Source: Escherichia coli
GTDB taxonomy: Bacteria > Pseudomonadota > Gammaproteobacteria > Enterobacterales > Enterobacteriaceae
Length of the DNA stretch: 64,000 bases
Assembly: GCF_050320075.1 (NCBI RefSeq)
Contig: NZ_CP190018.1
Reading direction: 5' to 3' (one strand)
In this document: positions 44,065 through 44,431 of the stretch, piece by piece
Layout: each line of letters starts with the position of its first letter
Numbering within the stretch: the first letter of the stretch is position 1
Program-made: the position numbers and the translations under genes
The notes under the pieces: generated by a model
Databases searched by the model: none
What the model was told of the DNA's origin: nothing
What the model saw: only the letters and a program-made list of their open reading frames with translations

Positions 44065-44250
44065 TTAATGAACTGTCGCCACTTCAATTACGGCACGGAT
44101 CATCACCTGCGTGAACCCACAGCCGATTAACTCTTCTTTCAATATTGCGATAGCTGCATTAACGCTGGTGGCGTTCACGTTTTGCTGATTATCAATAACG
44201 TGGCCTTGATGATTTACAGCGCGTGCGGTTATCTGAAATCGCTTAAGCAT
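44065..44250 (-). CDS. hypothetical small protein (61 aa)
   Basis: ATG overlaps the stop of the upstream 62-aa ORF (ATGCTTAA); GGGGGTGAGG upstream can serve as SD. Confidence 0.4.
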   Translation of the reverse strand: MLKRFQITARAVNHQGHVIDNQQNVNATSVNAAIAILKEELIGCGFTQVMIRAVIEVATVH

Positions 44251-44431
44251 GCCTCACCCCCTGACGAATACGGGCAGCGAATACAGCAACACAGCCGGAC
44301 GGGCAACAGTTACGCGCTTCTCGTTCGGTTGATGCCTCGACGTGAACAATACGGGAATCAGTCGGATTAAAGATGACAAAGCGCCAGATAAATGTGTTTT
44401 GAGAATGTTCGAGGGTAGGGGTAGTAGCCAT
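44243..44431 (-). CDS. hypothetical small protein (62 aa)
   Basis: Consensus AGGAGG Shine-Dalgarno 7 nt upstream of the ATG (minus strand ...ACAGGAGGCTGCCAAATGGCT...); first ORF after a structured leader. Confidence 0.5.
   Translation of the reverse strand: MATTPTLEHSQNTFIWRFVIFNPTDSRIVHVEASTEREARNCCPSGCVAVFAARIRQGVRHA

Follow-up and report, generated by a model that had tools for sequence, protein, structure and literature searches.

A small island of about 8 kb lies in an Escherichia coli chromosome between a tRNA-Pro gene next to yejM and the yejO autotransporter gene. The surrounding stretch of 64,000 nucleotides (contig NZ_CP190018.1), referred to here in its full length as the window, was analysed for the nature and control of a pair of short open reading frames (ORFs) within this island. 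The two ORFs, of 62 and 61 residues, occupy positions 44243-44431 and 44065-44250 respectively and, like all the genes and RNA features of the island described below, are encoded on the minus strand. The first is related to Icd of phage P1 and Kil of satellite P4, whilst the second encodes an uncharacterised small protein at the position which is held by ant in P1 and by epsilon in P4.

The 62-residue ORF is preceded by an AGGAGG Shine-Dalgarno (SD) sequence (44439-44444), 7 nt 5′ of its ATG (44431). Its stop codon (44245-44243) and the start codon of the 61-residue ORF (44250-44248) are both contained in ATGCTTAA, giving an overlap of 8 nt, and a G-rich SD sequence for the second ORF, GGGGGTGAGG (44252-44261), is formed by the last codons of the first (QGVR of IRQGVRHA). 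An earlier note on this DNA, made from the letters alone, had drawn attention to the ORFs, the AGGAGG motif and the stop/start overlap, all of which are found on the minus strand exactly where it had placed them. Its description of a translationally coupled two-gene module is upheld at the level of sequence by the 8-nt overlap and by the SD sequence within the last Icd codons. In RefSeq, both ORFs are annotated as coding sequences (CDSs) in 100% identical copies of the locus, the first as 'host cell division inhibitor Icd-like protein' and the second as 'hypothetical protein' (WP_000919328.1). A plus-strand ORF at 44182-44370 (62 residues, TTG start) and other antisense ORFs were set aside, as they are antisense to this annotated minus-strand pair.

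By profile and alignment, the 62-residue ORF is a member of the Icd/Kil family. It scores 59.6 bits against the NCBIfam Icd-like profile NF033153 (cutoff 25), with residues 14-57 aligned on positions 1-48 of the 48 in the profile. Multiple alignment gives an identity of 33% with P1 Icd and with P4 Kil alike, and the motifs FIWRF, TE.EAR and AR are common to the three proteins. Residues 12-51 of P1 Icd have been shown experimentally to be enough for FtsZ binding and for the block to division (PMC11897509); the alignment spans this core, and the equivalents of R15, E32, A48 and R49 are kept. The ORF is also the first translated one 3′ of the C4/CI RNA, likewise the case in P4 and P1. The predicted structure has a beta-beta-alpha-beta order, with a predicted local distance difference test (pLDDT) score of 83-87 in the core, and its best structural match among viral proteins is an Icd-like protein, albeit a weak one. 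BLASTP of the ORF against the P4 eta ORF returned nothing, and the relation is visible only in the multiple alignment and with hidden Markov models. By analogy with P1 Icd, the protein probably inhibits cell division through FtsZ.

The second ORF is a real, conserved gene, as judged from its intact copies, the bias of its changes to third codon positions and the confident fold of its product. Of 5426 complete E. coli genomes, 64 carry it, always as a single full-length copy, and E. coli 042 is among the carriers. In the loci that were fetched, all 47 copies are intact at 60-61 residues, so that the conservation check which the earlier note had proposed found a preserved reading frame. Differences from homologues of 39-49% identity are distributed over the three codon positions at about 20/22/42, the third thus changing about twice as often as the first or second. 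An AlphaFold2 model of the protein reached a mean pLDDT of 95.6 from only seven sequences and is again of beta-beta-alpha-beta order (strand 2-13, strand 18-27, helix 30-43, strand 46-60), with 18 invariant residues spread along the fold.

The sole family match of the 61-residue protein is PHROG 3672, which is of unknown function. There was no match in Pfam (E <= 10), NCBIfam or PADLOC, and none by tblastn against 50,697 phage records, whilst its profile gave only chance matches to Protein Data Bank sequences (E around 1). An exhaustive phmmer search of 1.84 billion representatives gathered a family of four clusters at 50% identity, confined to Escherichia and close relatives and named only 'hypothetical' or 'prophage protein'. 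Foldseek searches against viral models returned uncharacterised small proteins only, at E >= 5e-3. The neighbours of the fold include the small phage inhibitors T7 Gp2, T4 Dmd and phi29 p56, in which a three-stranded sheet is combined with one helix. The small family which it represents has no known function and occurs in enterobacterial satellites of the type termed phage-inducible chromosomal islands (PICIs). Remote-homology searches and structure prediction, as the earlier note had recommended, thus correct its statement that neither ORF belongs to a recognisable family: this does not hold for the first, which is Icd-like, but stands for the second, for which a confident fold was obtained but no family of known function.

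The leader RNAs and the antisense switch

Two RNAs of established families lie upstream of the pair. The first is a leader RNA of the isrK/seqA type (44597-44673), which matches Rfam RF01394 over its full length with 61.6 bits (gathering score 50) and in which a terminator scan placed an intrinsic terminator, comprising a stem at 44602-44618 and a T run. Six nucleotides 5′ of the isrK 5′ end, the motif TATACT (44680-44685) was read from the sequence as a candidate -10 element of a constitutive leader promoter; related loci have TATGAT at this point, and a simple promoter scan did not report the candidate. The second is an antisense immunity RNA of the C4/CI type at 44485-44572, which scores 78.7 bits against Rfam RF01695 (gathering score 45; model positions 1-87 of 87). 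In its predicted fold it presents two antisense elements, the loop TTTCCTGTAACA (44520-44531) and GTGGTAA (44507-44513).

Both elements have targets on either side of the C4 RNA. Upstream, within the isrK RNA, sequence and comparison of loci identify TTACCAC (44642-44648) and GTTACAGG (44625-44632). Downstream, a second TTACCAC (44474-44480), which is a2-like, is complementary to the C4 element GTGGTAA, and a b2/seqC-like target, GTTACAGGAGGCTGC (44435-44449), covers the AGGAGG sequence of the Icd-like ORF. Pairing of the C4 loop with this SD-proximal target involves UUUCCUGUAACA with GUUACAGGAGGCUGC. The duplex has a calculated energy of -21.4 kcal/mol, compared with -13.1 +/- 2.9 for shuffled targets, of which 9 in 1000 were as good.

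Co-variation was followed in 25 loci with a C4 RNA, of which 23 are related viral loci and the other two are P4 and the window. The loop of the C4 RNA and the copies of it in the leader (seqA) and adjacent to the SD sequence (seqC) change together and fall into at least six specificity types. A second element, GTGGTAA/TTACCAC in the window, co-varies likewise across loci, the downstream target changing with both the C4 element and the upstream copy. Over nine loop/target combinations the mean duplex energy was -13.7 kcal/mol for cognate and -6.1 kcal/mol for non-cognate partners. The locus thus has a C4 RNA with the structure of its family, two antisense elements with targets both upstream and downstream, the last of these on a ribosome-binding site, and, as far as the letters alone can tell, a gene coupled to the leader ORF. 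The architecture and its control can be assigned with high confidence to the type represented by P1 immI and P4 immunity.

From the complementarity of the C4 loop to the SD sequence and from the co-variation, it follows that the SD sequence of the 62-residue ORF is a target of the immunity RNA. The earlier note had taken the AGGAGG motif as a strong translation signal; on the precedents of P1 and P4, the motif would instead be expected to be blocked at rest by the adjacent C4-type RNA.

The similarity to P4 extends to the order of the elements. The left-operon leader of P4 runs seqA - cI (the CI RNA) - seqC - kil/eta - epsilon, with the same Rfam families (isrK at 8615-8692 and C4 at 8420-8507), and kil, which ends at 8168, overlaps epsilon (7888-8175) by 8 nt, as in the window. 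Common to both are also a Kil homologue beginning MATT, a G-rich SD sequence before the next gene, a primase operon downstream and a co-varying two-site antisense. Unlike P4, the window has at the epsilon position a gene unrelated to epsilon (PF25738), and the long Eta form has been lost. The island also differs in having neither sid/delta/psu nor cos, in having int upstream as in PICIs and in encoding a primase of the DUF927 type.

The immI region of P1/P7 (a1/b1, c4, a2/b2, icd, ant1/ant2) has the order found in the window, with b2 located just before the icd start. Here the icd stop codon overlaps the ant1 start by 4 nt, and the curated notes of the P1 record speak of 'repression of icd ant translation' and describe icd as 'apparently required for expression of ant'. 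By contrast with P1, the gene following Icd in the window encodes a 61-residue single-domain protein and not the 347-residue Ant, and the island has no C1-type repressor or operator.

A third comparison is provided by isrK - orf45 - anrP of Salmonella Gifsy-1, in which AnrP is an anti-repressor behind a related isrK switch (PMC4825925). As in the window, an isrK leader with a partial terminator precedes a small RNA-controlled ORF, whose overlap couples it to the downstream anti-repressor gene. However, IsrK acts as a trans activator in Gifsy-1, no separate C4 RNA has been described for that locus and the protein sequence of orf45 is not conserved (PMC4825925), whereas the window has a C4 RNA and its leader ORF encodes a conserved protein of the Icd-like type.

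Phage TL-2011c (locus L096) and some 150 other phage records, from Shiga toxin (Stx)-converting and related phages, share the isrK, C4 and leader segment of the window at about 84% identity. The RNA-controlled start of Stx and related phages opens a Rha-family regulator/anti-repressor gene and not a short Icd-like ORF.

A remnant of a long Eta/Ash-type ORF (44254-44850) overlaps the isrK and C4 RNA genes, out of frame with the Icd-like ORF. It is annotated in RefSeq as an 'ash family protein' pseudogene, and its residues 56-143 match PF10554 over about 44421-44685. In other C4-type islands a long ORF of the Eta/Bro type continues in frame into the Icd ORF, which forms its tail. On comparison with loci L016-L051, the window and its 11 close relatives all have a spacer between the SD sequence and the ATG of the Icd-like ORF (44432-44438) that is 1 nt shorter than in the other C4-type loci (GCCAAATG against GCCAACATG). 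This places the long Eta/Ash frame out of frame, so that only the short Kil/Icd form is possible in this lineage, and it accounts for the RefSeq pseudogene. In the lineage of the window the frame is open for only 25 codons before the Icd ATG, compared with 34-757 (mostly >140) in other C4-type loci. The idea that the 'ash family' CDS is a mere translated RNA gene was withdrawn, since Eta of P4 is a real nested long form, of which the window has a frameshifted remnant. The PF10554 match has a bearing on annotation. In P4 it is the eta ORF that this family matches; epsilon proper belongs to PF25738, which it matches at E = 1e-50. A published census of P4-like satellites took PF10554 as a marker of 'epsilon' (PMC8628076); the family marks the Eta/Ash-C4 region and not epsilon.

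The position behind the Icd-like ORF

A survey of 80 viral-contig loci with an Icd-like ORF was made for the gene that begins within the last codons of Icd. The offset of the overlap is always -4, -8, -11 or -14 nt. This slot is occupied by the 61-residue family in 21 of the 80 loci, and homologues of the 61-residue protein are always found directly after an Icd-like ORF, with the 8-nt overlap. Its position, directly after the Kil homologue and with an overlapping start, is that of epsilon in P4. Six further groups occupy the slot, two of which are related to each other, giving at least six unrelated families in all. With the exception of this one pair the groups are mutually unrelated by hhalign, and none of them resembles epsilon or the 61-residue ORF; the other families are all PHROGs of unknown function.

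Identical Icd cores of 44 residues precede different slot families, and the junction CGTATTCGTCAGGGGGTG..C-ATG is constant whichever gene follows, with the Icd codons IRQGV forming the SD sequence of the next gene. The kil/epsilon junction of P4 and the icd/ant1 junction of P1 are of the same design.

In 16 of the 80 loci the slot is occupied by a second, tandem C4-Icd unit (L017, L021, L027, L031, L032, L036, L039, L042, L043, L053, L054, L062-L064, L066 and L068). This contains an ORF of 153-168 residues (73 residues in L021, where it is truncated) starting MRKNRLQKII, and the full-length examples end in an Icd-like sequence. The unit looks like a duplicated immunity cassette, possibly conferring dual specificity.

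The commonest homologue of the 61-residue protein (P0028, on at least 1000 contigs) is encoded in an island lying within the portal gene (PF05136) of a lambdoid prophage, which is split in two. Location inside a lambdoid portal gene is the configuration of helper-embedded PICIs (PMC10111431). These islands (L123-L126, about 6846-16727 per locus) carry their own capsid E, decoration and Nu1 (small-terminase) genes. In the helper-embedded relatives, the place of the C4 RNA before Icd is taken by a divergent protein repressor. A further sequence, at 118-861 of locus L005 beside a DDE transposase, predicts a 247-residue protein (P0015) with a C-terminus like the 61-residue protein and an unrelated N-terminal part; it may be a chimeric assembly or an artefact of gene calling.

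The island carrying the pair

The genes of the island are, in order, those for an integrase, an AlpA-like protein, the 'ash family' pseudogene, the 62-residue and 61-residue proteins, a DUF4222 protein, a DUF927 primase, a single-stranded DNA-binding protein (SSB), a ProQ/FinO-like protein and a PerC-like protein. The integration site on the attL side is the tRNA-Pro (GGG) gene at 46974-47050, identified by ARAGORN and by the Rfam tRNA family and set in RefSeq in the context yejM - tRNA-Pro - int. The first island gene encodes a tyrosine integrase of 414 residues (45523-46767; Arm-DNA-bind_3 and Phage_integrase in Pfam on identical products, in agreement with RefSeq). The AlpA-like helix-turn-helix protein of 63 residues (45078-45269) matches PHROG excisionase and transcriptional regulator families, and identical products show a weak match to Pfam Phage_AlpA. 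Downstream of the pair, the 95-residue DUF4222 protein (43738-44025; PHROG 285, and Pfam PF13973 on identical or related products) has a stop codon that overlaps the start of the primase gene. The latter, a replication gene of the same operon, encodes a DUF927 primase/helicase of 711 residues (41606-43741; Pfam DUF927; PHROG 1139 DNA primase, E = 1.8e-165). The pair thus lies where the earlier note had located it, with a leader and its terminator on one side and the primase operon on the other, within an integrated element that resembles a satellite.

Gram-negative PICIs are divided into Integration, Bro, Replication and Late zones (PMC10111431). Their layout, and that of helper-embedded PICIs (int - alpA - Bro zone with C4/isrK - primase - SSB; PMC10111431), is reproduced in the window, where int and alpA are followed by a Bro zone, made up of the Ash remnant with C4/isrK, and then by primase and SSB genes, all co-oriented. 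Unlike PICIs, the island has no late zone with packaging or capsid genes; the ProQ/FinO-like and PerC-like genes stand in that place, followed by about 1.3 kb without genes. Neither does the island have the psu, sid, delta and P2-type cos of a P4-like satellite, and at the nucleotide level it resembles P4 in the C4 region only. As judged from its gene layout, the element is a small integrative element of about 8 kb at tRNA-Pro with the organisation of a Gram-negative PICI.

The far end of the island is less well defined. A short direct repeat at 38793-38805, GGCACGAGAG with a partial flank, matches the 3′ end of the tRNA-Pro gene (46979-46988) and provides a weak, tentative attR, which would put the island at about 38.8-47.0 kb. 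The final 1.3 kb or so (38.8-40.1 kb) has no convincing gene. Iteron-like repeats, GGGACAAG / CTTGTCCCAAAAT, are found directly 3′ of the primase gene (41439-41580) and once more on the far side of the PerC-like gene (39231-39289), and CTGTCCCRC occurs three times near 39180-39205. The iteron-like repeats are candidates for origin or crr-type repeats of an island replicon. Alleles of the island are mosaic: when 43400-45300 of the window is compared with loci L006, L009, L012 and L014, identity shifts abruptly between adjacent features, for example 98% against 69% in DUF4222 and 100% against 63% at the primase 5′ end. Recombination among related islands therefore appears to be frequent.

Possible roles of the second gene

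The pair is best regarded, with some reservation, as the first translated genes of an early, immunity-controlled operon, in which the 61-residue protein would be a translationally coupled early effector and possibly an anti-repressor. By analogy with P1 immI and P4, processed C4 RNA would at rest block translation of the Icd-like ORF. The untranslated mRNA would be terminated, so that neither the 61-residue protein nor the products of the primase operon would be made. Once the block is lifted, translation would proceed through the Icd-like ORF, with ribosomes re-initiating at the start of the 61-residue ORF. The product of the latter would, at a best guess, be a small protein-binding effector that is made only on induction.

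Of the roles that such an effector might have, the most likely, though we put it forward tentatively and at less than even chances, is that of an anti-repressor directed against a helper prophage resident in the same cell. A derepressor-type function is preferred because the slot holds an anti-repressor in P1 (Ant), P4 (epsilon) and Gifsy-1 (AnrP), and genes behind isrK/C4 switches elsewhere, including AnrP and the Rha-family genes of Stx phages, encode anti-repressors or regulators. The earlier note had left the module type open between toxin-antitoxin, anti-defence and derepressor functions; a derepressor role for the second gene is the best supported of these by position, whereas the toxin-antitoxin type is disfavoured, as the Icd-like protein has no fixed partner. 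No protein repressor is encoded by the island itself, and the target of an anti-repressor would therefore have to be supplied by a co-resident prophage.

A number of observations weigh against this interpretation. The 61-residue protein has no sequence or profile similarity to Ant, Bro or Rha domains or to any characterised protein, and comparison with P4 epsilon (PF25738) gave no BLASTP alignment and an hhalign probability of 0.5%; the case for an anti-repressor is therefore one of position. The junction between the ORFs has no special RNA structure and none which hides the 61-residue start (z = +1.16), so that any coupling would depend on the overlap and the SD sequence only. Among close E. 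coli alleles the ratio of non-synonymous to synonymous substitution rates (dN/dS) is 0.5-2, albeit on substitutions too few for interpretation (5-8 non-synonymous against 0-4 synonymous). Finally, the RefSeq gene list of the identical island contains no psu/sid/delta, capsid or terminase genes, and the island contains no match to the P2/P4 cos site, so that it is a putative satellite with a putative helper.

Other small inhibitor functions, such as anti-defence or host takeover, are nearly as likely for the 61-residue protein as that of an anti-repressor. An early effector with no repressor as its target, released by the same RNA switch and directed against host defences or against a host or helper function such as RNA polymerase, a nuclease or replication, is a possibility to which we give about one chance in a few. 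It is countered by the fact that every characterised gene in this place behind C4/isrK encodes an anti-repressor or regulator (P1 ant, P4 epsilon, AnrP; PMC4825925), and there is no match in PADLOC or to another family and no indication of a particular target.

Far less probable is a pair resembling a toxin-antitoxin system, in which the Icd-like protein would be a toxic inhibitor of division and the 61-residue protein would neutralise or modulate it. Expression of P1 Icd and of P4 Kil is indeed toxic (PMC11897509; PMC10111431), the two ORFs overlap, the 61-residue family occurs only directly after an Icd-like ORF, and both models have the beta-beta-alpha-beta order. However, identical or near-identical Icd cores precede at least six unrelated proteins or a second C4-Icd unit, so that Icd has no fixed partner, and in P1 and P4 the place is taken by Ant and epsilon and not by an antitoxin. 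Neither ORF matches helix-turn-helix, ribbon-helix-helix or AbrB families, as a DNA-binding antitoxin might, control being exerted by RNA, and hhalign finds the 62- and 61-residue proteins to be unrelated (0.1% probability).

Marginally the least probable reading is that the 61-residue ORF is mainly a translated spacer against Rho-dependent polarity on the DUF4222-primase genes, or a replication accessory like P4 cnr, with little or no role in trans: translation of leader genes does prevent premature termination in P4 (PMC10111431), the upstream ORF at the Salmonella isrK locus is conserved as nucleotides and not as protein (PMC4825925), and dN/dS is near 1 among close alleles, but a spacer accords poorly with a compact fold predicted at pLDDT 95.6 from seven sequences, with a length of 60-61 residues kept at 39-49% identity whilst third positions change twice as often as first or second, with 18 invariant residues along the fold, and with islands lacking the 61-residue ORF in which other genes are coupled directly to Icd and no spacer is needed.

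Returning to the coupled early effector, a broader and rather speculative proposal would be that the 61-residue protein founds a new family of small satellite effectors, for example anti-repressors of helper prophages or counter-defence inhibitors, and that the position behind Icd is a general plug-in hotspot at which unrelated small proteins of unknown function are exchanged behind one conserved stop/start junction, to be released solely on induction by an antisense-RNA or repressor switch.

The regulatory design described here is the textbook one of P1 and P4 and has been noted before in Gram-negative PICIs, so that there is nothing new in the pair itself. Of some value is the precise location of an uncharacterised but confidently folded 61-residue protein, a plausible if unproven helper-directed effector, in a slot which holds an anti-repressor in three studied systems. 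The slot itself is a cassette position, at which at least six unrelated families of unknown function are docked to one coupling junction. This yields a short list of candidate proteins by which enterobacterial satellites may act on helper phages or hosts, together with a simple means of finding more, namely to look for the gene whose start overlaps the stop codon of an Icd-like ORF.

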